A program made the position numbers and the translations under genes. Below are positions 1-23,474 of a DNA stretch of 64,000 bases, piece after piece. Where the stretch lies: contig JAUWTM010000003.1 of NCBI GenBank assembly GCA_030614715.1, positions 13,763-77,762 of the forward strand, in the 5' to 3' direction. The notes below the pieces were generated by a model. That model ran no database searches, had not been told where the DNA came from, and worked only from the letters and a program-made list of their open reading frames with translations. Positions within the stretch are counted from its first letter, which is position 1. The number at the start of each line of letters is the position of its first letter. This DNA comes from Planctomycetota bacterium. GTDB lineage: Bacteria; JAJVIF01; JAPKYR01.

Positions 1-2
1 GA

Positions 3-422
3 CCCATGTACCTGAATTCGCTCAGTATTTTCGGGCTGCCGATTATCACCTTTGGATCGAGCCGCATTGATGAGCCCGAAGACGCCGACGTATTCATCAA
101 GGAAAACCCGGGTAGGCCGTCCTTCAGAAGGTTCGTGGTCAAGGACGGAAAACTGATCGCGGCGACTTTAATAAATGATGTGCAGAATGCAGGTGTTTTC
201 CAGTACCTTGCACGCGAGAAGGTCGATATCGGCGACATAGCCTCGTCGCTGTTTGAACAGGACCTGGCCGGGATGGATTTCCTGTACCAGCATCACGAAA
301 AGGTTGTCAGCGGCGAAAATATCGACTGGCCAGAATCGATGAGCCTGATCAAATGGTTCAAGAAGGACCATTCGCATACTCGCTGGGGTAAGAAGGAAGC
401 CGGGGAAAAATCAAAGAAATGA
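3..422 (+). CDS. FAD/NAD(P)-dependent pyridine-nucleotide-disulfide oxidoreductase family protein, C-terminal fragment (5' end outside window)
   Basis: The frame stays open to the window edge, so the Met at 6 is an edge artefact. The tail ..GKLIAATLINDVQNAGVFQYLAREKVDIGD.. resembles the C-terminal region of Pyr_redox-type flavoproteins. The stop overlaps the next start (ATGA at 419-422). Confidence 0.5.
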   Translation, partial: PMYLNSLSIFGLPIITFGSSRIDEPEDADVFIKENPGRPSFRRFVVKDGKLIAATLINDVQNAGVFQYLAREKVDIGDIASSLFEQDLAGMDFLYQHHEKVVSGENIDWPESMSLIKWFKKDHSHTRWGKKEAGEKSKK

Positions 423-2299
423 CAGTATCGATTGGAAATATCAGATCACGCACAGCGTTCGTCGACCTCACCAGTGGATCAGTGACGTACGAAGATACAT
501 CGCCCGAGGTCGTTGAGAAGTTCATCGGCGGACGCGGGTTGAACGCAGCGTATCTCTACAAGCTTCTTCCTCCCGACACAGATCCCCTTTCCCCTGAAAA
601 CGTACTGATAGTCGGGACCGGAGCGATGTCCGGGACCGGTGCTCCCAACTCCAGCCGTTTCAATGTCACTGCGCTTTCCCCGGAATCGGGGATATTCGGC
701 GACGCAAACAGCGGGGGATTCTTCGCGACCAAATTGCGTGCATCCGGAATAGACCGGGTCATTATGCTTGGCAAAGCCGACGTACCGGTCATTTTGAAGG
801 TAGAGGACGGTGAAGTCACGATCGAGGACGGCGGGAAATACTGGGGACTGGATGTAAACGAAACGCAGAACGCTATCAAGGGTGACCACGGACCGTCATC
901 AGAGGCAATCTGCATCGGACCTGCGGGGGAAAAGCTCGTACGGTTCGCGTGCGTGATGTCGGGTGTAAAAAATGCAGCTGCGCGCGGCGGCATGGGTGCC
1001 GTGATGGGCAGCAAGAACGTGAAAGCGGTCGTCGCTGCAGGTGGACGTATCGAGGACGGTCTTGTAATAGACGATCCCGATGGTTTCCTGACGCTTTGCG
1101 AGGAATTAAAGGACTATCTCCAGGCTTCTCTAATAGTGAAGGTGCTCGGACATGTTGGAACTCCGCTTCTGTACGAAGTAAGTAATCATCTCGGAGCAAT
1201 CAGGACCCGAAACAGCCAGGACAGCTCGTTTGAGGACACGCTCGATGCCGAGATCATCCATGACCACGTATCGAAAATGATCTCGTGTCATTCATGCGTC
1301 GTTCACTGCAGGCATCGGAACATTCACGAAGGCGAGGGCCCTGAATACACGACAATAGTACTTCTCGGAGCGAATCTTGGAATCGCTGACACCGCCGAGG
1401 TCATCAAACTGAACAACCTCGCCAACAGGCTTGGCCTGGACGTCTCATCGACAGGCGGAATCCTGTCATGGGCGATGGAGCTGTACGAGAAGGGAATAAT
1501 CGACGATTCACTGACCGGTGGACCGGTTAAGTTTGGGGATTACAACCTTGCTGTGAAATTAATAGAATCTGTCGCAAATAGAGAGGGATTCGGAGACATC
1601 CTCGCGGAAAGTTCCAGGGCAGCCGAAAAACTCAACGATCCAAAACGTGATTACCTGACAGCAGTCAAAGGACTCCCGCAATCCGACCCACACGATGTGC
1701 GGTACATCAAGGCGTTCGCGCTTGGGATCGCAACAGCGTCACGTGGAGCCGACCATCTCCGTAGCAGGCCGACGCTGGAAGTTTTCGACCTTCCACCGGA
1801 ACTCCTGAGAGATATATATGGTCAGGATGTAAGCCGCGACCCGACTGAATACGATACGAAAGAAGTCGTTGTCTACACCCACGAGAATATTTATTCGCTG
1901 ATCGACGCGATCGGAATATGCAAGTTCATCTGTCACGGGTTCAACAGCCCGAAACTTCTCAAGCACGAGCATTTCTCGAAGCTGCTGGATAAGGCGTTCG
2001 GCGCAAAATACACCGAAGCTGAACTCCGAGACGTTGCGCTTCGAATTGTCGACCTGGAAAGGATGTTCAACAACCGCCAGGGAATCCGGCGGAAGGACGA
2101 CACGCTTCCCAGACGGTATTTCGATGAACCGATGCCCCACGGTGTCGCGAAGGGACACAAGATTGACCGGGATCAGTTCAAGGGAATGCTTGACAGGTAT
2201 TACAAGATCAGACAATGGAACGATGACGGCACCGTAACGCAGGAACGGATCGATGAGATCGATGCGATGGTGGATCATCTGGCGGGGGTGCGGACATGA
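419..2299 (+). CDS. aor: Aldehyde:ferredoxin oxidoreductase (tungsten-pterin AOR family)
   Basis: 626 aa. N-terminal ..FIGGRGLNAAYLY.., ..EAICIGPAGEKLVRFA.., ..GLPQSDPHD.. and overall length are typical of AOR-family W enzymes. ATGA start/stop overlaps on both sides. A tungstate transporter and a pterin cofactor operon lie elsewhere in the window. Confidence 0.9.
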   Translation: MTVSIGNIRSRTAFVDLTSGSVTYEDTSPEVVEKFIGGRGLNAAYLYKLLPPDTDPLSPENVLIVGTGAMSGTGAPNSSRFNVTALSPESGIFGDANSGGFFATKLRASGIDRVIMLGKADVPVILKVEDGEVTIEDGGKYWGLDVNETQNAIKGDHGPSSEAICIGPAGEKLVRFACVMSGVKNAAARGGMGAVMGSKNVKAVVAAGGRIEDGLVIDDPDGFLTLCEELKDYLQASLIVKVLGHVGTPLLYEVSNHLGAIRTRNSQDSSFEDTLDAEIIHDHVSKMISCHSCVVHCRHRNIHEGEGPEYTTIVLLGANLGIADTAEVIKLNNLANRLGLDVSSTGGILSWAMELYEKGIIDDSLTGGPVKFGDYNLAVKLIESVANREGFGDILAESSRAAEKLNDPKRDYLTAVKGLPQSDPHDVRYIKAFALGIATASRGADHLRSRPTLEVFDLPPELLRDIYGQDVSRDPTEYDTKEVVVYTHENIYSLIDAIGICKFICHGFNSPKLLKHEHFSKLLDKAFGAKYTEAELRDVALRIVDLERMFNNRQGIRRKDDTLPRRYFDEPMPHGVAKGHKIDRDQFKGMLDRYYKIRQWNDDGTVTQERIDEIDAMVDHLAGVRT

Positions 2300-2733
2300 G
2301 ACGTATCTACACGAAACCCGACCTCTGTTCCGGATGCAGGGCATGTTCGATAGCATGCGCGATCGCGCATTTCGGTGTTGCGGATGATTCCCGTGGCGCA
2401 ATACAGATTCTCAGGAACCCGTTCATGGGATTCGAATACCAGGCCGTGTGCCGTATCTGCGAGGAACCGGAATGTGTCGCGGCCTGTATGGGAATCGCAC
2501 TGACAAGGGATCCCGACACGGGCCAGATCCATTTCGATGAGGACCGTTGCATTGGCTGCTGGATGTGCACGATGGTATGTCCTCACCAGGCGGCCATTCC
2601 CGATCCGAAACGGGGCAAGGCCATCATCTGCGACCAATGCGAGGGACGCGACAAACCGGCATGCGTCGCCGCATGCTCTACCGGAGCGGTCACGTTTATT
2701 GAAGTCGAAGATAAGGTTGGAGCCGAAGGCTGA
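2296..2733 (+). CDS. 4Fe-4S dicluster/polyferredoxin-like electron-transfer subunit (AOR partner)
   Basis: 145 aa with four Cys clusters: CSGCRACSIAC, CRICEEPECVAAC, CIGCWMCTMVCP, CDQCEGRDKPACVAAC. The start overlaps the AOR stop (ATGA). Confidence 0.85.
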   Translation: MRRIYTKPDLCSGCRACSIACAIAHFGVADDSRGAIQILRNPFMGFEYQAVCRICEEPECVAACMGIALTRDPDTGQIHFDEDRCIGCWMCTMVCPHQAAIPDPKRGKAIICDQCEGRDKPACVAACSTGAVTFIEVEDKVGAEG

Positions 2734-2798
2734 CGTACGCACGAATTTCCAGTCTTATTAAATACAGTACTTAGTAATCAGTCACCATCGAGCTGAAT

Positions 2799-3788
2799 AT
2801 GCCGCAAGAAAACCTGACCATTGGAGCAGTGGGGGTTGGCGCAGTTGGCACCATCCTCGCATCATGCCTTGCAGAGGCCGGAGCCGATGTAATTGCCGCC
2901 GACATTCCTGTGCGTAAGTCCCAGGTCGATGAAAACGGGCTGCGGGTGACGTGGGCTGACAGGCAGCTCAATAACCTGATCAAGACCGTCGACAACATCA
3001 GCGACCTGAAAGCGCACGAACCGGACGTGATATTCGTCGCAACGAAGGCGTGTCTGTTGAAACGGATCATGCCGGATGTCGCCGATGCTGCGGGTGAGAC
3101 CAGCATTGTCATGAGCGTCCAGAACGGTATCGGCACCGAGGATGAGATCGCGAAGTATGTCAATCCCGGAAGGGTCGCCAGGATGGTTGTGAATTACGCA
3201 GGCAGGATGGAGGAAAACGGCGATGTGTTCGTCAACTGGTTCAATCCTCCTAATGCTTTCGGACCACACGTCGATGGCGATCACCCGGCCCTGGTAAAAC
3301 TCGTAGAGATGCTCAATGAAGCCGGAATGACATCGGACCTTTTCGATTCTGCCACGATCAAGAAGAAGGCATACTTCAAGACAACCCTGAATTCATCACT
3401 TATGCCACTCTGTGCGATAATGGACCGCACGATGAGCGAAGCGATGCGTTGCCCCCTGACTCGAATGCTGGCCGCCGACCTCCTTAAGGAAGCCCTTGCA
3501 GTTGGTCAGAAGCTGGGATACGACTACGGCGAAGGAATAATCGACACGTGCATTGGGTATCTCGACAAGGGCGGAGACCATCACCCATCTATGTCAGTCG
3601 ATCTCAAGTGCAAGCGTCCAACGGAAATCGATTTTATCAACGGGAAAATCCTGGAACTCGGTCAACAGTTTAACGATGTGAATCTGGAGACAAACCGCAT
3701 TATGGTTTCGTTCCTGATCTCGATGGAGATGTGTAACGGAACCCGCGACCCAGAGGACATACCCGGTTATCTCGGGAAATCCCAGTGA
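2799..3788 (+). CDS. 2-dehydropantoate 2-reductase (ApbA/PanE) family oxidoreductase
   Basis: N-terminal Rossmann motif IGAVGVGAVGTILA, then VATKA, VQNGIG and the family-typical SMSVDLKCKRPTEIDFINGKI block. Confidence 0.8.
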   Translation: MPQENLTIGAVGVGAVGTILASCLAEAGADVIAADIPVRKSQVDENGLRVTWADRQLNNLIKTVDNISDLKAHEPDVIFVATKACLLKRIMPDVADAAGETSIVMSVQNGIGTEDEIAKYVNPGRVARMVVNYAGRMEENGDVFVNWFNPPNAFGPHVDGDHPALVKLVEMLNEAGMTSDLFDSATIKKKAYFKTTLNSSLMPLCAIMDRTMSEAMRCPLTRMLAADLLKEALAVGQKLGYDYGEGIIDTCIGYLDKGGDHHPSMSVDLKCKRPTEIDFINGKILELGQQFNDVNLETNRIMVSFLISMEMCNGTRDPEDIPGYLGKSQ

Positions 3789-3880
3789 AATCCGGAGCTC
3801 TCGCGTTTAGAAATCAAGTATGACAAAAACGCTTTGAGAAGCATTACTAATATTAATACTCAGGAAGGAACTAAGAGGAC

Positions 3881-4942
3881 ATGTCAATGGCAACAAAACG
3901 TGAACCAATGCAGTATCCAATACCCAAGAGGAAGGCCCCCGGGCTCTTCGTCCATAAGGATGCATCAGAATTCGGCTTTCAATTTATTAAATATGAGAAG
4001 AACGACGGGATCGCGAAGGTCACCATCAACCGTCCGGAGGTCTACAACTCGTACAACCTCAAGACCCTGATGGAGATGACGGAGGCGTTCGACGACTGCG
4101 CATGTGACGACCGGGTCGGTGTAATTGTCCTGCGTGGTGAAGGCGACGTGGCGTTCTGCACGGGCGGCGACGTCAAGGAATACGCAGAGATGATCGTCCA
4201 GGGCAAGTCGCAGGACATGTGGCACTGGATGAACTGGTTTGTCCGTGCCCACGATGCACTTCGCAACACCGGAAAGACCAGCATCGCCGCGCTGAACGGG
4301 ATCGTGGTCGGGGGCGGCAACGAGTGGAACCTCAGTTGTGACGTAGCCATCATGGCCGACACCGAATGGAAAGAGAAAAAGGACGGCACGAAGGTCCCGA
4401 CACGCTATATCAAGCAGGTCGGTGCAACGGTCGGCTCAGTCGCTGCAGGCGGAGCAACACAAAACCTTCCGCTGGTCGTGGGAATGCGTCGCGCGAAGGA
4501 AATCCTTCTCTTCAACCGCCCGATGCCACCTCAGCAGTGCAAGGAATGGGGTCTCGTCAACGAAGTAGTTCCATACGACGAACTCGATTCAACAGTCGAG
4601 AAATGGGCGAAGGACGCGCTCAGACAGTTCCCGGGTTCGATCAGGTCCACACGCGAGCAGCTCAACTTCTTCAGCAACATGGTCTGGGGAACGAGCATGG
4701 GCTTCGCGAAGGACACACTAATCCGCAACATGGGCGGTATCGAGTCGTACTTCGGGATGGTCGGATTCGCGAAGAAACGTCCGGTTGATTACGATTCAAT
4801 CCGCAGGGCGGCCGCGGAAGGCGCCGACATGGAGCTATTGTTCGGACCGTACGTGCACACCTGCGGTGAATGCGGTCTTGAGGGAATACCGCTCGAGTTC
4901 GATTTCTGCGGCGGTTGCGGCGCGAAGCTGGAGATAGAATAA
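3881..4942 (+). CDS. Enoyl-CoA hydratase/isomerase (crotonase) superfamily protein, MenB/BadI-like, with C-terminal zinc-ribbon tail
   Basis: ..AKVTINRPEVYNSYN.., ..VLRGEGDVAFCTGGDVKE.., ..IAALNGIVVGGGNEWNLSCDVAIMAD.. are the crotonase oxyanion-hole blocks. The last 28 aa carry CGEC..x14..CGGC. RBS AAGAGGA lies upstream. Confidence 0.8.
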   Translation: MSMATKREPMQYPIPKRKAPGLFVHKDASEFGFQFIKYEKNDGIAKVTINRPEVYNSYNLKTLMEMTEAFDDCACDDRVGVIVLRGEGDVAFCTGGDVKEYAEMIVQGKSQDMWHWMNWFVRAHDALRNTGKTSIAALNGIVVGGGNEWNLSCDVAIMADTEWKEKKDGTKVPTRYIKQVGATVGSVAAGGATQNLPLVVGMRRAKEILLFNRPMPPQQCKEWGLVNEVVPYDELDSTVEKWAKDALRQFPGSIRSTREQLNFFSNMVWGTSMGFAKDTLIRNMGGIESYFGMVGFAKKRPVDYDSIRRAAAEGADMELLFGPYVHTCGECGLEGIPLEFDFCGGCGAKLEIE

Positions 4943-7777: not shown

Positions 7778-8983
7778 ATGGCATTCCCACTAGACCCGCC
7801 CGTAATAATTATCGAGGGCGCAAGAACCCCATGGGGTAAATTCACCGGCAGTCTGAAAGAATTCACAGCGACCGACCTTGCGGTCAAGGCAAGCGAGGAA
7901 GCGATCAAGCGGAGCGGTGTCCCCAAGGAAAAATTCGGACACACAATCATGGCGGTAACCCGTGCTACATCAAGCCTTGACGCGCATCACATGGGACGTC
8001 ATGTCGGCCTGAAAGTCGGCCTGCCCGAGGAAGCCGGCGGATACATGGTCAACCGGCTCTGCGGTGGATCACTCCAGTCGACGATCAACGGCACAGCCAT
8101 GATTCACTTCGGGGAAATTGAATACGCCCTGACCGGCGGTGCCGAAAGCCTGAGCAACTGCCCGCATTCGATATGGGGTTTGAGGGTCGGGCTAGGCCTT
8201 GGACAGGGAAAAATGCACGACACCCTGTGGGACGGGCTTGTGGATACGTACTGCAACCTGGGCATGGGTCCGACAGCGGAAAAACTCGCCGAGAAGTACG
8301 GCATCACCCGCGAGGAAGCCGATGCATTCGCGTTCCGCAGCCAGGACCTGACAGCGAAGGCCCAGGAAAGCGGTCTGCTCAAAGAGGAAATCATACCGGT
8401 TGAATACACGGTAAAGCGTAAACAGACCGCGATGCTTGAAGCCGATGAAACACCGCGCCTGACCGCGATCGAAAAACTTGCGGGACTTCGAGCTGCATTC
8501 GTCAAGGACGGTCAGGTCACCGCGGGAAACGCATGCGGTCTTGCTGACGGCGCGGCGGCAGTGGTTATCGGTTCTGCAAAGGCTGTCGAACGCGACGGAA
8601 TCGAGCCACTCGGTGAACTCATTGGATGGGCCGTGGTCGGTGTACCGCCGGACATCATGGGAATCGGTCCGGCACCGGCTATCAGGCAGATACTGGAAAA
8701 AACAGGAATGTCACTCGACGATATCGGCCTTATCGAGATCAACGAGGCGTTCGCCTGCCAGGTTCTTGCATGCTGCAAAGAACTTGAACTCGACCCGGAA
8801 CGTGTTAACGTGCAGGGGGGTTCGCTTGCACTCGGTCACCCACTCGGCGCTACCGGTGCACGACTCACATATACTCTGCTCCTGCAGATGCGACGGAACA
8901 AAGTGAAGTACGGCCTCAGCAGCATGTGCATCGGCGGCGGACAGGGAATTGTGGGCCTGTTCAGGAATCCGAGGGTTAGCTAG
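7778..8983 (+). CDS. Acetyl-CoA C-acyltransferase (thiolase)
   Basis: Active-site NRLCGGSLQS, NEAFACQ, GHPLGATGARL, CIGGGQGI. RBS AGGAG. Confidence 0.9.
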   Translation: MAFPLDPPVIIIEGARTPWGKFTGSLKEFTATDLAVKASEEAIKRSGVPKEKFGHTIMAVTRATSSLDAHHMGRHVGLKVGLPEEAGGYMVNRLCGGSLQSTINGTAMIHFGEIEYALTGGAESLSNCPHSIWGLRVGLGLGQGKMHDTLWDGLVDTYCNLGMGPTAEKLAEKYGITREEADAFAFRSQDLTAKAQESGLLKEEIIPVEYTVKRKQTAMLEADETPRLTAIEKLAGLRAAFVKDGQVTAGNACGLADGAAAVVIGSAKAVERDGIEPLGELIGWAVVGVPPDIMGIGPAPAIRQILEKTGMSLDDIGLIEINEAFACQVLACCKELELDPERVNVQGGSLALGHPLGATGARLTYTLLLQMRRNKVKYGLSSMCIGGGQGIVGLFRNPRVS

Positions 8984-9034
8984 TCCGGTCGTGATCATCG
9001 TGTAACGCTTTGTGAGAACTGATTAGGAGGTGAT

Positions 9035-9763
9035 ATTATTATACGTTATGCAGAATGGGTAGTTGCACTGATCATTAACTTAATCGCGGGATTAATACTG
9101 TTCTTTGTCATTCCGTTTTTCGCGGCAGACCTCAACAGGCTGCATATTGCAATTTTTATTGTTTGTTTATTGCTGATCATCTCTGCACTTATTTTAATGT
9201 GGCGACGCCTAGCAGCTTATAAAAACATCGGGATAGTGAATATCGTTCAGTCGATGACTGGCGGCAAAGGCAGTACGGAGACGATTCTCAAAACCGTAAA
9301 AAACCAGTTTTGTTTTATGGGTATAGCCGCCCGTAAATGGATCAACACCGAGCCACTACTGGAGAGTATCATTAAAAAAGTTGCCGCTCGAAATCGCACT
9401 ATGCGATTCCTCCTCCTAAATCCTGATTCTCCTGAGGCGATCCGTTTATCGCAGATTGAACACGGCAATCCGGATGTTGTTCCTGAGGCAATCCGCGATT
9501 CCTTAAGGAACTTTAAAGCATTACGAGAGAAGGGATATAACGTTGATGTAAAATTATATTCCTGCCTGCCGATTTTCCGGATCGCTATTGTCAATAACGA
9601 AACCGCTTACGTCGGATTCTACAGGGCAGGCACTGACGGCAGCAACTCACCACAACTGATATTAAGCAGTAAAGCTAACATTACTTACTTCCAGCCATTT
9701 ACCGAGTTATTTAATGATACCTGGGATAGAACAGCGGTAGATGTCGATTGGGATCAGTACTAA
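9035..9763 (+). CDS. Membrane-anchored (2 TM) hypothetical protein with PLD-like-fold (DUF5919-like) C-terminal domain; start codon uncertain
   Basis: The track starts this ORF at TTG 9170, but the frame is open from 9023. The upstream part encodes WVVALIINLIAGLILFFVIPFF and IAIFIVCLLLIISALILMW, preceded by a perfect AGGAGG (9025-9030). The only possible in-frame starts there are ATT (9035, 9038) or ATA. The soluble part (..MRFLLLNPDSPEA.., ..LPIFRIAIVNNETAYVGFY.., ..FNDTWDRTA) lacks an HKD motif. Confidence 0.45.
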   Translation: MIIRYAEWVVALIINLIAGLILFFVIPFFAADLNRLHIAIFIVCLLLIISALILMWRRLAAYKNIGIVNIVQSMTGGKGSTETILKTVKNQFCFMGIAARKWINTEPLLESIIKKVAARNRTMRFLLLNPDSPEAIRLSQIEHGNPDVVPEAIRDSLRNFKALREKGYNVDVKLYSCLPIFRIAIVNNETAYVGFYRAGTDGSNSPQLILSSKANITYFQPFTELFNDTWDRTAVDVDWDQY

Positions 9764-9778
9764 GCATGGAGGGGGATA

Positions 9779-11218
9779 TTGAGCATTCTGCAAAATATTG
9801 AATCCTACGTATCATCAAGCACTGTTGATTATCACGTTTTTTTCAGAGAACGCGGACTCGCTTTACACGAATCGTACAAAAACAACTCGTTTAATTTAAG
9901 CGCAGCAACGTCTAATCCACCAGAAGTTTCAACCTCCAGGGAATTTCTCGATTTGGTAAATACCAATCTGGAGTACTTAAGCGAGCACTTTCTCGATTTG
10001 TTAATGTCCCCATTGTCCGCTCGAATTTTATGGGCTCTTTATTGCTCAACATCGGACACTCATCTCACGGTTCTGGGTAAGTTATGCCCGTCCTTGGCAA
10101 ACATAGCTCAAGCGGTCCGAGGTGGTCCCAACATCTATAAGCTCAACGGGTGGATCGTACACGTTCTCATCGGTTACGGAATCATTACCGATTACATCCA
10201 CAGGGGCTCACTTCCATCTACGCTGGAATGGCCTTCATCAATTCTCGATTATGTAAATAGGACTCTAAGACCGATTTATAATTCCCTTACGGACATAAAC
10301 AAAACAATCCTACATGCAGGCATGCTGGGACATGACATCGGTGTGTCGGTCGATATTACGGATCATAATCTGCACGGCATACCGCTAGTCTCATCGTTCC
10401 TTGAGGAAATCAGAATTACGCCCGAAACTATCGGTGGAATCAGCCGGGAATTGGATTTTGATGATTTCACCTGGGCTGTAAAAAGCATTGTTAAATACCA
10501 CACTTTTATAAACCGTGTTGGAATCGAATTCAGCATACAACGCTCCGCGTTCGAAATCGAACAACTGGTGCAATCTGCCGACACCTTACCATGGAGGTTG
10601 ACGTTCCTTCGCGAGCATTTTTTTAAACTGCTGTTGCTTGTTGCCACAGGCGATCTAATCGCTGTGGACGACAGTTTATTTACCGAGCGTAAAGCCCGTG
10701 AGATGCAGGACAGTTGGAAATTCCTGGAATTAATAATCAACGACAATATGCATTCATTGGATCCCACCAGCGCGGGATTCAAACGATTTCAGGGCTTTTT
10801 AAACGATGATAATGTGAGCGTATCCAAAACGGAGCTTGATGTGGAACTTACCTCGCTTGGATATGTTCCCGACAGGTTCTGGACCAGTTTCTATCACGCA
10901 CAGGAATTCAACTTTGCACTTTCATTAGTCCGGTTTTTACCAGCTGCGACTGATGCTCTTCTAATATTTGTTTTAATTTTCCTCTTCATCGATTTCAAGT
11001 TCCCGGATACACCTGATATTTACCATGAAATCCGAGTTGTGTTTGATCATAAGCTGGATACTGACGTAATCGAAACGAACTTGTCAGACATCAGTCAATT
11101 TTTAAAAAGCAATCAATTCAAGACTTTGATCAAACAGGATTCACTGGAAATCAACGGCTTAAGGCTTGTCCTTACAGACGACGTAACCGGACAATATGTT
11201 TTCATAACATCTCATTAG
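9779..11218 (+). CDS. HD-domain (metal-dependent phosphohydrolase superfamily) protein
   Basis: ILHAGMLGHDIG (H..HD), then HNLHG, KYH and LVATGDLIAVDD, in the order expected for an HD fold. TTG start with GGAGGGGG RBS (9768-9775). The N- and C-terminal ~180-aa regions are unassigned. Confidence 0.55.
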   Translation: MSILQNIESYVSSSTVDYHVFFRERGLALHESYKNNSFNLSAATSNPPEVSTSREFLDLVNTNLEYLSEHFLDLLMSPLSARILWALYCSTSDTHLTVLGKLCPSLANIAQAVRGGPNIYKLNGWIVHVLIGYGIITDYIHRGSLPSTLEWPSSILDYVNRTLRPIYNSLTDINKTILHAGMLGHDIGVSVDITDHNLHGIPLVSSFLEEIRITPETIGGISRELDFDDFTWAVKSIVKYHTFINRVGIEFSIQRSAFEIEQLVQSADTLPWRLTFLREHFFKLLLLVATGDLIAVDDSLFTERKAREMQDSWKFLELIINDNMHSLDPTSAGFKRFQGFLNDDNVSVSKTELDVELTSLGYVPDRFWTSFYHAQEFNFALSLVRFLPAATDALLIFVLIFLFIDFKFPDTPDIYHEIRVVFDHKLDTDVIETNLSDISQFLKSNQFKTLIKQDSLEINGLRLVLTDDVTGQYVFITSH

Positions 11219-11234
11219 GCAAAGGTCGGAAGCT

Positions 11235-12617
11235 ATGGAGATCCCCGAACATATAAGTGACCTGATTACTGCGTTGGCGGCATCGGGTTTCATCGAATGT
11301 GCACATGAAAATCCCGAACGTGTTGTCAGGAGTTATATACTTGGGTTGCCTTCGAACCCACCTTCGGACGAGTTGTTCAAATCGGTATTCCCTGACCATT
11401 ATGAGCCCGGGACGTTTACTATTTCGGAGCGTAAGTTGAATCCCCCGTATATAACCGTTGATGACCGGCTATCGTACGAGGACTGGGTAATATCGGAAAC
11501 GAATTCTGACCTTGAGAAGCTTATCCCGTTACTTGAAGAACAATGCAAATGGTTAATAACAAATCCATCGATAATTTCCGAACTGCCTTCTAAAGTCCTT
11601 GCTGCGTTGAATTATTCATTCAAGCACGAGTGTACCCTTGCAGAGGAAATATATCAGCAGGAATATACGGATATCTTCAGGCGATTGAATCTGATTTACT
11701 TGACGGGATGGCCGAGAGTTCCATTCAACGAATACGACAAAATAAATGCTGAATTTCAGAAGATCGGAGTAAGCCTCGCAGATATGTGCAGCGATGTTAA
11801 CGAGAAGCTGTTAATGCGGATCAGTGCTGCCGCCGGTCTTATCGGCTTGAATCATAAAAGAAACGCATCCGCAACAGCAGTCCTGTATGATAAGGGTATT
11901 ATTCCAGTCAGCCTTACCGCGAATGACTACGTTAATACAGACATGGTCTTCTCAAACCTGGTCAGCAAAGCGGAGGAAGACTGGAAGATCGGGTATGAGG
12001 ACGAATTCTACGCACGGACATCGAAAGAAAACGGGACTGTCGGTCTCGTGTTTTTCCCGGATGATTACCTGGAAAGCATTATCGACTTGAAGTTAATCGA
12101 ACGCCTGATGGAGAACAACGACAAATTACACACAACGATTATTCCTCGTGCTTTAAGGTTCGGGAACGATGCTGGATACAGCGACATTACAGAATTTCTG
12201 AAACTGGACGTATTTTCAAAACTCGCATCGTATATGAAAGAAGGAAGGCTTGTCATTGAAATCATGGGACCGCTTTCGGGAACCGTGAACGGCAGGCGGC
12301 TTTCATCTCAAGCGGTTGAACATCTGAATTCTGCGGATGTCGTATACGTAAAAGGGGCCAGATCATACGAATGTCTTCAGGGGCTGAACACACACACTTT
12401 TTTTTCATTCGCTGTCTGCCGCAGTTTAAGCGAAGCCGTTACGGGAATCAACGCAGAAACAGGGGGACTTGTACTAATCTACCAGGAGCCTGGAGTACGG
12501 AGTTTTCAAGGATTCAGGAAACGACACCTGCGACAATGTGAGTCACCGTCCGGTAGAAAATATTGGCTGGCGGAAGTAACCGCATCGGATTCAACACTCG
12601 AACATCCCCTTACTTAA
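11235..12617 (+). CDS. DUF89/ARMT1-type metal-dependent phosphatase family protein
   Basis: FFPDDYLESIIDL (degenerate DxxxE block), RFGNDAGYSDI, ADVVYVKGARSYECLQG (KG-x-x-N/S-Y-E block), FAVCRSLSEAVTGINAETGGLVL (KC..v...lg block). These are colinear with the DUF89 fold. Confidence 0.6.
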   Translation: MEIPEHISDLITALAASGFIECAHENPERVVRSYILGLPSNPPSDELFKSVFPDHYEPGTFTISERKLNPPYITVDDRLSYEDWVISETNSDLEKLIPLLEEQCKWLITNPSIISELPSKVLAALNYSFKHECTLAEEIYQQEYTDIFRRLNLIYLTGWPRVPFNEYDKINAEFQKIGVSLADMCSDVNEKLLMRISAAAGLIGLNHKRNASATAVLYDKGIIPVSLTANDYVNTDMVFSNLVSKAEEDWKIGYEDEFYARTSKENGTVGLVFFPDDYLESIIDLKLIERLMENNDKLHTTIIPRALRFGNDAGYSDITEFLKLDVFSKLASYMKEGRLVIEIMGPLSGTVNGRRLSSQAVEHLNSADVVYVKGARSYECLQGLNTHTFFSFAVCRSLSEAVTGINAETGGLVLIYQEPGVRSFQGFRKRHLRQCESPSGRKYWLAEVTASDSTLEHPLT

Positions 12618-20661: not shown

Positions 20662-21696
20662 ATGCTAAGTGACATAGAAGAAATTGCTAAGCTGGCACAG
20701 AATTATGTTTCAAGGCAACCAGTAGTAATCCTTGGCAGTGGAGCATCTATACCTTATGGCTTACCTTCGATGGATGAACTTGAATTTGAAATTTCACAGT
20801 CTATTGAATTTGAGACCTATAGCGAGGAGTATCCGATCTGGGAAGAATTCAAAGATGTCTTAAAAGAAACGCAAGACTTGGAAAACGCCCTTAATGCTGT
20901 AACTTTAACACCCATTATGCTTGAGAAGGTTCTAGAAGTAACGTGGCGATTTATTACGCGTCGGGATTTCGTATTTCTCAGATCGTTAATAACAGGTTAT
21001 CGCGAATTTCAACTGCCAAATTTATTTAAATTTCTCACAAGAGTTGCTAATCCAAACCTGCTCGTTATTACGACTAATTATGATAGGCTAGCTGAATATG
21101 CTTCGGATCTTTCTGGTGCAGAAACAATAACTGGATTTACAGACGGTTTACTAAGGCGATTCGATCCAAGCCGTTTATATCAAGGGAGAATCACATCCGA
21201 TAAGGCTCGCATAAGCATATATAAAGTTCATGGCTCTTTGGATTGGTTTGAAGATCAGCATGGTGAACCCATTTCAATCCCACTTTCATTCGAACTACTT
21301 GATGCACTGAAGCCATTAATTGTGACTCCTGGAGTTACTAAATATCGAGAGACTCACAATGAACCTTTTAGGTCAATAATGTCTAAGGCAGATACCGCCC
21401 TCAGAGAAGCTTCATCTTATCTTTGTATTGGATACGGATTTAATGATGAGCATGTTCAACCAGTTCTTACTCAGCGAATCAATAGGGACAAAATTCCGAT
21501 TGTTTGCGTTTCTAAAACATTAAGTCCAAGTGGTCGAAGGCTACTACTTGATAATCCATGTGAAAATTTCTTAATTTTCGAGCAAGCCAAGAACGGAACA
21601 AAAATCTATCTGCCATCTGCACCAGACGGTGAAATCTATAAAGACTTACATCTTTGGGAACTTCATGAATTCCTTAAACTATTAGAAGATGATTAA
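20662..21696 (+). CDS. SIR2-like NAD+-binding/NADase domain protein (SIR2_2 family), defence effector
   Basis: PVVILGSGASIPYGLPSM (GxGxS Rossmann), VITTNYDRLAEYA (TNYD), YKVHGSLDW (HG), LCIGYGFNDEHV. These blocks are colinear with defence-type SIR2 proteins. Confidence 0.8.
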   Translation: MLSDIEEIAKLAQNYVSRQPVVILGSGASIPYGLPSMDELEFEISQSIEFETYSEEYPIWEEFKDVLKETQDLENALNAVTLTPIMLEKVLEVTWRFITRRDFVFLRSLITGYREFQLPNLFKFLTRVANPNLLVITTNYDRLAEYASDLSGAETITGFTDGLLRRFDPSRLYQGRITSDKARISIYKVHGSLDWFEDQHGEPISIPLSFELLDALKPLIVTPGVTKYRETHNEPFRSIMSKADTALREASSYLCIGYGFNDEHVQPVLTQRINRDKIPIVCVSKTLSPSGRRLLLDNPCENFLIFEQAKNGTKIYLPSAPDGEIYKDLHLWELHEFLKLLEDD

Positions 21697-21707
21697 GGAG
21701 CTTGACC

Positions 21708-23474
21708 ATGTCACTTTTCAATTATGAGGACAGCGAAGCAATCGGAGGAGTATTTAGTGTCGACACAGGCTCAGTGTTGGTTAGAGTTGAAGACGTTGAG
21801 CAATTAAGGAAATTACAGGTTAATCACCTTGTCGCTTTAAGAAGTTCAAGGACAGGTCAACATCTGATTGGCATCATCCACAAAATTATGAGAAAGGCAT
21901 TGATGAAACCCCTAGATGAAGAAACAGATGAAGCCACACCTGAAGACGGCACCTTTGAAGAAAATATTATTCGTGTGACACTAATAGGCACGCTAAAGGA
22001 TAAGGCGGGTGAAAAACCTAACGTCTTTCAGCGTACATTAGAATCTGTCCCTGAAATTGACGCAAGATGTTTTATTTTATCAGGTGAAAGACTGACTAAA
22101 TTTATGCAAGCAATATCGATCGGTGCTGGCACCAAACCAAATGCATTATCTTTAGGGAAATATACTATTGACGAGGATGCTAATGCTTGGCTAGATGGTA
22201 ATCGGTTTTTCCAGAGACATGCCGTCTTAGTAGGAGCTACAGGATCCGGCAAATCGTGTGCAACTGCACATATATTGGAGCAGGTTGAACCTTTACAAAA
22301 TTCAAATGCGATACTTTTTGATATCCACGGTGAATATAAGACAATCGAAGGTGATAACATACAGCATTTTCATGTTGCTGGACCAAGCGATCTGGATCAA
22401 GGCACTGGTCTCGCTGACAATGTAATTTTTCTACCATATTGGTTACTAACATACGAAGAAATGATCGCTTTCTTATTAGATCGAAGTGATTTGAATGCGC
22501 CTAATCAGGCAATGTTATTTGCGAGGTCTGTTACAAAAGCTAAAAAGGATTATCTTGAAAAAGAGGATAAAAATGAAATTTTAAAGAACTTTACAATTGA
22601 TAGTCCAGTCCCATATTCATTAGATTCAGTAATTGGATCCCTAAAGATACTTAACGAAGAAAAAGTCCCTGGTGCAACAGGCAAACCAATTAAAGGCGAC
22701 TTCCACGGTAAGCTATCCCGATTCCTTCAAAGGCTGGAGGCTAAAATTGGAGATCGAAGGTTAGGCTTCATGTTCGGTGGTGGCAAAGACGTAATGGATT
22801 ATGATTGGATGCTAACACTCTGTACAAAGTTGATTGGAGGATCAGGTCAACAGCCTTATGGTGGTGTCAAAATAATAGATTTCTCTGAAGTTCCTTCAGA
22901 TGTTCTTCCATTGATGACTGGCATGGTAGCTAGGTTGGTGTTTTCCATCCAGCAATGGACTGAAAAAGAAGAATTACATCCAATAGCTATTTTTTGTGAT
23001 GAAGCCCATCTATACATACCCGAACACCTTGCAGCCAATGCGGTCAATGAAGCTGGATTTCGGAGTTTTGAGCGTATAGCAAAAGAGGGAAGGAAATATG
23101 GAGTTGGATTGGTAGTAATCAGTCAGCGCCCCTCTGAAGTAAATCGAACCATACTTAGTCAATGTAATAACTTCATTGCCATGAGATTAACAAACGCAGA
23201 AGATCAATCTGTGATTCGTCGGCTTTTACCTGATAGTTTAGGAGGATTCTCTGAACTTTTACCCATCTTAGACACTGGAGAAGCAATAGTCGTTGGTGAT
23301 GCATCGCTATTACCATCAAGAATTCGTATTGATCTACCTAAAAAGAAACCAACCAGCGCAACAATAGACTTTTGGGATGAATGGTCAAAAAAAAGCACAT
23401 CAACTGGAATCGCCAATGCCGTTGAATCCCTGCGTCTACAGGCAAAAATCAAGAAAAATCTACCTGTCAGATAG
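21708..23474 (+). CDS. herA: HerA/FtsK-like (DUF87) ATPase, partner of SIR2
   Basis: Walker A VLVGATGSGKSC, Walker B IAIFCDEAHLYIP, VVISQRPSEV, N-terminal barrel-like IGGVFSVDTGSVLVRVED. ATG 21708 is preferred: AAGGAG at 21695-21700 gives a 7-nt spacer. Confidence 0.85.
   Translation: MSLFNYEDSEAIGGVFSVDTGSVLVRVEDVEQLRKLQVNHLVALRSSRTGQHLIGIIHKIMRKALMKPLDEETDEATPEDGTFEENIIRVTLIGTLKDKAGEKPNVFQRTLESVPEIDARCFILSGERLTKFMQAISIGAGTKPNALSLGKYTIDEDANAWLDGNRFFQRHAVLVGATGSGKSCATAHILEQVEPLQNSNAILFDIHGEYKTIEGDNIQHFHVAGPSDLDQGTGLADNVIFLPYWLLTYEEMIAFLLDRSDLNAPNQAMLFARSVTKAKKDYLEKEDKNEILKNFTIDSPVPYSLDSVIGSLKILNEEKVPGATGKPIKGDFHGKLSRFLQRLEAKIGDRRLGFMFGGGKDVMDYDWMLTLCTKLIGGSGQQPYGGVKIIDFSEVPSDVLPLMTGMVARLVFSIQQWTEKEELHPIAIFCDEAHLYIPEHLAANAVNEAGFRSFERIAKEGRKYGVGLVVISQRPSEVNRTILSQCNNFIAMRLTNAEDQSVIRRLLPDSLGGFSELLPILDTGEAIVVGDASLLPSRIRIDLPKKKPTSATIDFWDEWSKKSTSTGIANAVESLRLQAKIKKNLPVR

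Follow-up and report, generated by a model that had tools for sequence, protein, structure and literature searches.

A rare HD/DUF89 cassette with a two-helix membrane protein as a candidate bacterial conflict module

In the known ligand-gated effectors of bacterial immunity, transmembrane (TM) or TIR modules sit on SAVED, STING, Macro or CARF domains, and the CorA effector is accompanied by NrN, a signal-degrading phosphodiesterase. Here we consider a three-gene cassette within a 64,000-nucleotide stretch of DNA from a Planctomycetota bacterium (GenBank assembly GCA_030614715.1, contig JAUWTM010000003.1, positions 13,763 to 77,762 of the forward strand; hereafter the window, whose own numbering is used throughout). 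Its genes, called gene 1 (g1), gene 2 (g2) and gene 3 (g3) in window order, are predicted to encode a membrane protein with an inactive phospholipase D (PLD)-like domain, a divergent HD-superfamily phosphohydrolase and a DUF89/ARMT1-like phosphatase. This cassette belongs to a rare and mobile module of three families, with the genomic hallmarks expected of a system for defence or conflict. The logic behind modules of this kind is known in general terms, and none of these parts occurs in a described system: PADLOC v2.0.0 matches none of the three core families, with only fused TIR and methyltransferase domains scoring among their relatives, and a search for literature linking DUF89, ARMT1, PF01937 or DUF5919 to defence or RNA repair found no relevant paper in the searched library. 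An earlier note on the window, written from its letters alone, had likewise been unable to place the cassette in any described system.

Because the triad recurs, shuffled and fused, in unrelated bacteria beside immune-type genes, we consider an undescribed anti-phage or conflict system to be its most likely identity. Stated in full, the cassette would be a horizontally acquired, undescribed conflict module, most likely anti-phage and of the abortive-infection type, in which an HD/DUF89 pair accompanies a sensor-gated effector. We hold this full statement to be evenly poised between right and wrong, and both the defence function and the substrate are matters that we infer. The three genes are as follows.

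9038-9763, + strand: g1, a two-TM protein with a C-terminal DUF5919-like (inactive PLD-like) domain; start probably ATT 9038, with ATT 9035 and ATA 9041 as alternatives
9779-11218, + strand: g2, a 479-residue protein of a divergent clade of HD-superfamily phosphohydrolases, the clade being rare by homologue counts and the protein mostly alpha-helical in its AlphaFold2 (AF2) model
11235-12617, + strand: g3, a 460-residue DUF89/ARMT1-like metal-dependent phosphatase of a distinct clade with 'DD' for the canonical 'DN', assigned from PF01937 and a profile match to PDB 2g8l

The triad is a real unit. Its three families co-occur in five or more lineages that span phyla, with gene order kept or permuted, and other lineages carry g1-g3 fusions; the earlier note had made its own reading depend on such a recurrence. 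The g1-g2-g3 order of the window is shared by a Logan contig encoding P0090, P0004 and P0010 and by locus L006, where g2 has decayed to fragments; at L014, g1-g2 is present and the contig ends without g3. In the commonest branch (L015-L018; 68 collection blocks) the order is g3-g1-g2. Elsewhere (L003/L004, L012 and L002), g2 is followed by or divergent from a gene fusing TM helices, a g1-like domain and g3, after which comes an endonuclease/exonuclease/phosphatase-family (EEP) gene. The middle domain of these fusions is homologous to g1 (hidden Markov model E-values of 2e-6 and 2e-5; hhalign probability 96.7%, E 4.6e-10), and its union with g3 in a single protein provides a Rosetta-stone link between g1 and g3. 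Likewise, g2 lies beside g3 or its fusion in 11 of about 13 distinct loci with usable context, the exceptions being L009 and possibly L014.

The families are extremely patchy and rare. A scan of the genome collection recovered two distant or fragmentary loci only. Searches of plasmid and phage collections by tblastn and pattern scans of IMG/VR returned no homologues, and therefore give no evidence for a phage or plasmid origin. The cassettes are compositionally distinct wherever they occur: their GC content is lower than that of at least one flank in 12 of 12 other loci, and lower than both flanks in 10 of the 12. The earlier note had allowed that related cassettes might always be embedded in aromatic-degradation operons at native GC; instead, they are never found in such operons elsewhere, and the flanks differ at every locus. 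Decay is a further recurring feature, with g2 eroded at both L006 and L010. At L006 (8468-11392, in a high-GC genome with sporulation genes), g2 survives as fragments at 9216-9800 and 9731-9976, and its HD core is deleted. Just 5' of the L006 triad, on the opposite strand, lie three Tubulin_2 (PF13809) proteins of roughly 1000 residues.

The module keeps company with immune-type genes. For example, locus L010 (1-7253 of a Candidatus Solibacter metagenome-assembled genome, MAG) encodes a 799-residue fusion of TIR_2 (109.6 bits), a g1-like domain and DUF89, in which TIR stands in place of the TM helices and matches defence TIR models in PADLOC. A remnant of g2 adjoins this fusion, and beside it NACHT-HEAT, Metallophos_2 and second g3-like genes form a run. 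At L001/L013 and L007/L008, a Metallophos-NB-ARC-TPR gene overlaps g2 by 4 nt, and the vicinity holds CHAT, AAA_35, a second NB-ARC-TPR gene and a DUF433/DUF5615 pair. At L019-L021, NTP_transferase, a fusion of g3 with a 2H phosphoesterase (both HxT/S motifs conserved) and TIR-NB-ARC are contiguous; here the surroundings (455-10498 in L019, and also in L020 and L021) form a dense TIR island with two ThsB-type TIR genes, an unannotated 415-residue neighbour and a TIR-methyltransferase. A g3 relative is fused to an S-adenosylmethionine (SAM) methyltransferase matching MADS mad2 (61.7 bits) in P0027/P0028. Other phosphoesterase superfamilies (EEP, Metallophos and 2H) repeatedly join the module; PDB searches with the EEP and Metallophos partners were uninformative.

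Signs of mobility are equally widespread. Integrases, insertion sequence (IS) elements or resolvase adjoin L015-L018, L009 and L002, and the genes flanking various loci include integrase, IS66, resolvase, IS110, serine recombinase, a HEPN/MNT pair, Bro and ParB. At L009, a Clostridium MAG, a HEPN (DUF86-like)/minimal nucleotidyltransferase pair (331-1033) lies near a solo, distant g2 homologue, together with a large serine recombinase and Bro-like and ParB-like proteins; these neighbours were assigned by eye from translations, and the surroundings look like an integrated mobile element. Class I SAM methyltransferases also recur, at L014 (3533-4339, - strand), convergent beside g2, and at L003 (6776-7561, - strand), nearby and assigned by motif only. 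A different partner appears in P0048, where a GT4 glycosyltransferase shares one open reading frame with the N-terminus of a g2 homologue and also matches Pfam 'GT4-conflict', a family described elsewhere (PMC8195603). Locus L005 presents a run (2-4213) of GT4, two unannotated genes of about 300 residues and g2; for one of the two, a precomputed GDPGP1_C match was not reproduced in our own Pfam scan. A sugar-nucleotide link is possible for the GT4 and L005 context.

Metabolite damage control is the best-known task of DUF89 phosphatases. The assignment of g3 to this superfamily, which the earlier note had drawn from colinear motif blocks, holds at the level of remote homology: g3 scores 38.5 bits against PF01937 (cut-off 25), precomputed PF01937 matches also cover most homologues, and the profile of the 15-member g3 family matches PDB 2g8l with an E-value of 2.5e-4. 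In the 2g8l alignment, FFTDDyLE pairs with YITDNVGE, GNDA with INDA and KGARSFE with KGQGNFE. The Pfam-matched region is located thus.

11901-12398, + strand: ARMT1-like Pfam match in g3, residues 223-388, with motifs FFPDDYLE, GNDAG and KGARSYE

The family shows no variation at D276, D277, N311, D312 and R376; of its 15 members, 12 retain K373, and three divergent ones have another residue there. The active site of Duf8901 comprises the nucleophile Asp248, Asn249, the second metal-binding residue Asp286 and the phosphate-binding Lys401 (PMC9062747). Onto these map D276, D277, D312 and K373 of g3, respectively, with the Asn-to-Asp exchange at D277 invariant across the clade; judged by these residues, catalysis is likely kept but altered. 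Orthology to characterised damage-control phosphatases was considered and rejected, as the NCBIfam equivalog scores fall far under their cut-offs (NF040824, 16.6 bits against 440; NF041594, 13 against 500). Enzymes of the DUF89 superfamily hydrolyse phospho-metabolites and pyrophosphate, and their active site resembles that of the T4 Pnkp 3'-phosphatase (PMC9062747).

The second enzyme is more remote from anything described. Homologues of g2 number 8 among 5.8e9 clusters and 62 representatives among 1.84e9 proteins, and across 44 diverse members (18-46% identity; an alignment too diverse for pattern scanning) the residues N118, Y120, K121, W125, H128, H185, D186, G188, H196, G200, H241, D292 and R336 are invariant. 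Among them, H128, H185-D186, H196, H241 and D292 reproduce the H..HD..H..H..D metal-binding pattern of the HD superfamily.

10118-10672, + strand: predicted catalytic core of g2, residues 114-298, with RGGxNxYKxxGWxxH followed by H185-D186, H196, H241 and D292

No Pfam match at E<=10, PF01966 included, was obtained for any of 8 g2 members, NCBIfam and PADLOC scans gave only noise (a PADLOC Cas12b match at E 0.04 among the window proteins is of this kind), and PDB sequence searches with the g2 profiles A1 and A5 were empty. When the family profile was run against 1.84e9 proteins, the sole outside match was P0088, a GlnD with PF01966 at residues 475-580 (E 4.5e-4), in which HD pairs with HD and H(x)3G with H(x)3G of the GlnD HD domain. 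The AF2 model is mostly alpha-helical (predicted local distance difference test, pLDDT, 87; predicted template modelling score 0.89). Its fold matches are weak: Foldseek ranked class II CC-adding tRNA nucleotidyltransferases first (3wfo-3wfs; E about 3e-3, TM-score 0.33-0.37, root-mean-square deviation 9-11 A, probability 1.0), ahead of the class I cyclic-nucleotide phosphodiesterases PDE10A, PDE2A and PDE5 (E 0.06-0.3, TM-score 0.2-0.37); no match was found among viral structures. We therefore word the prediction, at the level of remote homology, as a divergent HD-superfamily phosphohydrolase. The HD signature read in the earlier note is borne out by the invariant metal-site set and the GlnD profile link, though not by any Pfam HD match; its hint at a dNTPase-type enzyme (dGTPase/SAMHD1-like) is not, with no PADLOC match and none among the top 50 fold matches, and we reject it. 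Both g2 and g3 keep their predicted catalytic residues.

The remaining gene, g1, appears to supply a membrane segment and a catalytically dead domain. Its features are these.

9025-9030, + strand: Shine-Dalgarno of g1, AGGAGG, read from the sequence, 7 nt 5' of ATT 9038
9056-9202 (about 9056-9127 and 9140-9202), + strand: two predicted TM helices, in the hydrophobic stretches WVVALIINLIAGLILFFVIPFFAA and LHIAIFIVCLLLIISALILMW, residues about 8-31 and 36-56 counted from 9035
9260-9739, + strand: soluble DUF5919-like domain without an HKD motif, from hhalign, PF19319 and Foldseek

The g1 frame has no ATG, GTG or TTG before 9170, so the TM helices can be encoded only from ATT 9038 or ATA 9041; a start at 9170, the first canonical one, would remove TM1 and half of TM2. 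In the homologues P0090-P0092 and at L006, L014 and L015, the initial Met aligns at the ATT-ATT-ATA of the window (9035-9043), and the two TM helices align with g1 codons 5' of 9170. Given the perfect Shine-Dalgarno 7 nt upstream and the homologue Met aligned there, ATT 9038 is likely the g1 start. Of the two N-terminal TM helices that the earlier note had claimed, then, the helices themselves stand, both in the sequence and in the AF2 model (helices 2-25 and 33-64); what must be added is that they are encoded only with a non-canonical ATT or ATA start. It is this start codon that explains the truncated public call, a 188-residue product (P0089) that omits both helices. Rare ATT starts serve low-level expression in bacteria, as in E. 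coli infC, and such a start may hold a membrane-toxic g1 protein at a low level.

As to the soluble domain, PF19319 (DUF5919) falls just under threshold in three of seven g1 family members (best E 6.3e-5; for the L014 protein, 21.7 bits against a cut-off of 23.5, E 1.9e-4). Window g1 itself has no Pfam DUF5919 match, its Pfam, NCBIfam and PADLOC scans giving only noise, and a PDB sequence search with the g1 profile was empty. Foldseek of the poor g1 model (pLDDT 58.7) placed PssA, of the PLD superfamily, in all top 13 positions at non-significant E-values of 0.17-0.4. The strand motif PIFRIAIVNN..YVG is colinear with the HxK..D..G motif, and the HKD position reads F-R-I-A-I-V-N-N. As no His is invariant in the family, HKD chemistry is absent and the domain is taken to be non-catalytic. 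These near-threshold family members and PssA folds agree with the PLD-like, DUF5919-type domain lacking HKD that the earlier note had proposed from its peptide blocks, all of which, along with those quoted for g2 and g3, are found in the translations. The family is tiny, comprising four database clusters and three further members from the loci. A PADLOC CARF_TM match of g1 (E 0.008) spans the TM helices only and was dismissed.

In the window, the three + strand reading frames (g1 frame open 9023-9763; g2 9779-11218, TTG start; g3 11235-12617, ATG start) are separated by 15 nt (g1/g2) and 16 nt (g2/g3), and each encodes a protein with homologues at 40-52% identity; the genes are real. All three frames are intact across 3.6 kb, and every family-invariant residue is kept. 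The spacing, strand and two ribosome-binding sites reported in the earlier note were reproduced at its coordinates. So too was the AT-richness, with spot GC values of 41.7% at 10981-11040 and 61.7% at 8881-8940: the cassette has 44.1% GC against 55.3% and 53.6% in the left and right flanks, and GC at third codon positions (GC3) is 46-49% in its genes versus 58-69% in neighbouring ones.

9768-9775, + strand: Shine-Dalgarno of g2, GGAGGGGG, read from the sequence
12614-12617, no strand: right edge of the AT-rich insert, where the g3 stop overlaps that of a convergent (- strand) 845-residue Fe-S/flavin oxidoreductase in the sequence ACTTAAA

On the left lie alcohol dehydrogenase, short-chain dehydrogenase/reductase, enoyl-CoA hydratase and thiolase genes; on the right, the convergent oxidoreductase, two BcrAD/BadFG ATPases, two HGD-D subunits and a thioesterase. 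These flanks are a coherent anaerobic acyl-CoA/aromatic locus, which the cassette interrupts, just as had been proposed. No terminator-like site separates g3 from the oxidoreductase gene, and with the stops overlapping and no intergenic DNA between them, convergent transcription must collide. At the borders of the insert, neither direct repeats of the att type nor a promoter or terminator rose above shuffled expectation, and Rfam and tRNA scans of the window gave no match; a 21-nt inverted repeat (8850-8870 / 12536-12556), which falls within coding sequence, was put down to chance. A second AT-richer insert (20662-23474; 39% GC, GC3 28-31%), between thioesterase and 3-hydroxyacyl-CoA dehydrogenase genes, encodes SIR2 (PADLOC 381 bits) and HerA (PADLOC 789 bits). 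This is a SIR2-HerA defence system 8 kb from the cassette, the bona fide island noted previously, and the catabolic locus has therefore been hit twice by foreign DNA.

How might such parts work together? We propose that g2 (HD) and g3 (DUF89) would act in series on a nucleotide-derived phosphoester, with g2, or in some relatives perhaps the fused 2H domain, cutting a diester or anhydride and g3 then stripping the remaining monoester by aspartyl-phosphate chemistry. The dead PLD-like (DUF5919-like) domain of g1 would bind the substrate, the product or the DUF89 enzyme itself, and this binding would gate the N-terminal killing module: here a 2-TM segment damaging the membrane, in the Solibacter relative a TIR NADase domain. 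As for the hydrolases, they may produce the ligand, remove it by way of safety or reset, or themselves act as depleting effectors. In its most specific form, this would amount to immune signalling without a cyclase, in which HD and DD-type DUF89 enzymes make or clear a phosphoester ligand that a dead PLD-like domain reads to fire 2-TM or TIR modules. We offer that form tentatively, expecting it to be wrong sooner than right.

Several points weigh against the cassette being a conflict module of this design. Some neighbours are of sugar-nucleotide or envelope type (GT4, NTP_transferase, phosphoglucomutase) and could point to metabolism. The association with defence comes from about a dozen distinct loci and not from a genome-wide enrichment statistic, and distant g2 homologues (L009) and g3 relatives (L019-L024) can also be found with the other partners missing. 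In the window, neither a promoter nor a terminator belongs to the cassette itself and g1 has no canonical start, which together make expression of the cassette uncertain. The fold matches of g2 are weak (TM-score 0.2-0.37) and the g1 model is poor (pLDDT 58.7). Finally, a signal-making enzyme such as a cyclase or CD-NTase is absent from the core, leaving the ligand-gated model without a known ligand source; the window cassette consists of its three genes only, none of them a CD-NTase, cyclase, TIR or Cas10 signal synthase, and TIR is found in some relatives only.

Metabolite depletion is a common defence logic. The catalytic pair could be read as the weapon rather than as its trigger: on infection, g2 and g3 themselves would break down a phosphorylated metabolite that the cell cannot do without (nucleotides, NAD(P)-derived compounds or CoA/4'-phosphopantetheine), and g1 would only anchor or regulate them at the membrane. 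Apparently full catalytic sets in both enzymes suit this idea, as do the activity of DUF89 enzymes on phospho-metabolites and pyrophosphate (PMC9062747) and the EEP, Metallophos and 2H phosphoesterases that join the module in other lineages. Yet the exchange of 2-TM for TIR on the g1 domain resembles an effector slot and not an anchor, g2 bears no similarity to HD enzymes of the dGTPase/SAMHD1 type in PADLOC or among the top Foldseek matches, and unregulated hydrolases would be toxic, with no regulator evident; we regard depletion as unlikely. The same damage-control reputation of DUF89 could lead away from immunity altogether, to a horizontally gained accessory module of metabolism or the envelope, for instance one for damage control of phospho-sugars or lipid head groups at the membrane. 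The g1 domain does resemble phosphatidylserine synthase folds, GT4, NTP_transferase, a GDPGP1-like gene and phosphoglucomutase lie beside some homologues, and transcription of the catabolic operon may run on into the window cassette. However, g1 lacks the HKD catalytic residues, the same pathway never hosts the cassette twice, and it is TIR, NB-ARC, NACHT, ThsB, toxin-antitoxin and integrase genes that dominate the neighbourhoods. Even the GT4 partner matches 'GT4-conflict', and useful metabolism would not typically be so rare, so patchy and so prone to pseudogenisation, all of which makes this origin rather unlikely in our estimation and places it behind depletion.

Ranked lower still, and distinctly unlikely, is a module that processes or repairs RNA ends during conflicts, in which g2 would bind tRNA or RNA and open 2',3'-cyclic phosphates, DUF89 would remove the phosphate and the partners would methylate or trim. 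It draws on the CC-adding tRNA nucleotidyltransferases 3wfo-3wfs as best fold matches of g2, on the g3 relatives fused to a 2H cyclic phosphodiesterase (both HxT/S) or a SAM methyltransferase, on the Metallophos and EEP partners and on the likeness of the DUF89 site to the T4 Pnkp 3'-phosphatase (PMC9062747). But those fold matches have TM-scores of 0.33-0.37 at 9-11 A, a ligase, kinase or RtcB-type partner is seen at no locus, and membrane-anchored DUF89 fusions and the TIR fusion fit poorly with such work. One last alternative concerns the source genome alone, where the cassette might be a silent or decaying passenger whose g1 start codon and promoter are lost: no ATG, GTG or TTG precedes 9170, no convincing promoter was found, and the module decays elsewhere (L006 and L010). 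Three intact frames over 3.6 kb with all family-invariant residues kept speak for the contrary, as does a perfect AGGAGG 7 nt before ATT 9038, ATT starts being known from E. coli infC, and we consider the passenger scenario very improbable.

Should the cassette indeed be a defence system, not only would DUF89 phosphatases, a new HD clade and DUF5919-like dead PLD domains gain their first immune roles, but DUF5919 would acquire its first functional context. It could also reveal an immune logic in which phosphoester hydrolysis takes the place of nucleotide cyclisation. The natural variants (2-TM or TIR, split or fused, STAND-linked, 2H- or methyltransferase-fused) are ready comparisons for dissecting mechanism. 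For annotation, the lesson is that a non-canonical start codon can yield a truncated public gene call, as for g1.

Set beside known families and systems, the cassette combines familiar chemistry with unfamiliar arrangement. With DUF89/ARMT1 proteins (PF01937; PH1575, PDB 2g8l; S. pombe Duf89/Duf8901), g3 shares a score above the Pfam gathering threshold, a colinear order of nucleophile Asp, ND motif and KGxxx(Y/F)E, and probably, to judge by those motifs, aspartyl-phosphate chemistry. Its clade of about 20 clusters is nevertheless separate, with an invariant Asp at the metal- and phosphate-binding Asn site, a conserved extra N-terminal region (YEPGTFT..ER, YQQEYTD..RR) and operon or fusion ties to HD, TM, TIR, 2H and methyltransferase modules that are unreported for DUF89. 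With the HD superfamily (PF01966; the uridylyl-removing domain of GlnD; class I phosphodiesterases), g2 has in common the H..HD..H..H..D constellation and the GlnD motif alignment, and to judge by its model and the weak phosphodiesterase fold matches perhaps an all-alpha core as well, whereas it lacks Pfam, NCBIfam and PDB sequence matches even by profile, possesses a unique invariant RGGxNxYKxxGWxxH and has a domain of mixed alpha/beta structure at its C-terminus; nor is it a relative of the defence dGTPases. The g1 family approaches DUF5919 (PF19319) and the PLD fold through sub-threshold matches, the PssA fold matches of a weak model and the colinear strand motif, while window g1 itself has no match and, without the His and Lys of HKD, is not a PLD-type enzyme. 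DUF5919 proteins carry a helix-turn-helix before the domain; in g1, by contrast, the domain follows two TM helices.

At the level of whole systems, the window cassette has no STAND NTPase and the association with such proteins is confined to some lineages, but in those the g2-g3 pair or g3 relatives share operons with proteins in which NB-ARC or NACHT is joined to Metallophos or TIR, in the manner of Avs/bNACHT-type STAND NTPases. As for the TM/TIR-SAVED and STING effectors of CBASS, the Macro-TM effector of type II Thoeris and the type III CRISPR effectors Cam1 and CorA with NrN, g1 has no homology to SAVED, CARF, STING, Macro or SLOG, and CD-NTase, cyclase and Cas10 are missing from the core. 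What the module would share with them, by analogy, is their architecture: an N-terminal 2-TM or TIR segment on a small, non-catalytic domain apparently derived from a nucleotide enzyme, set beside phosphoesterases.

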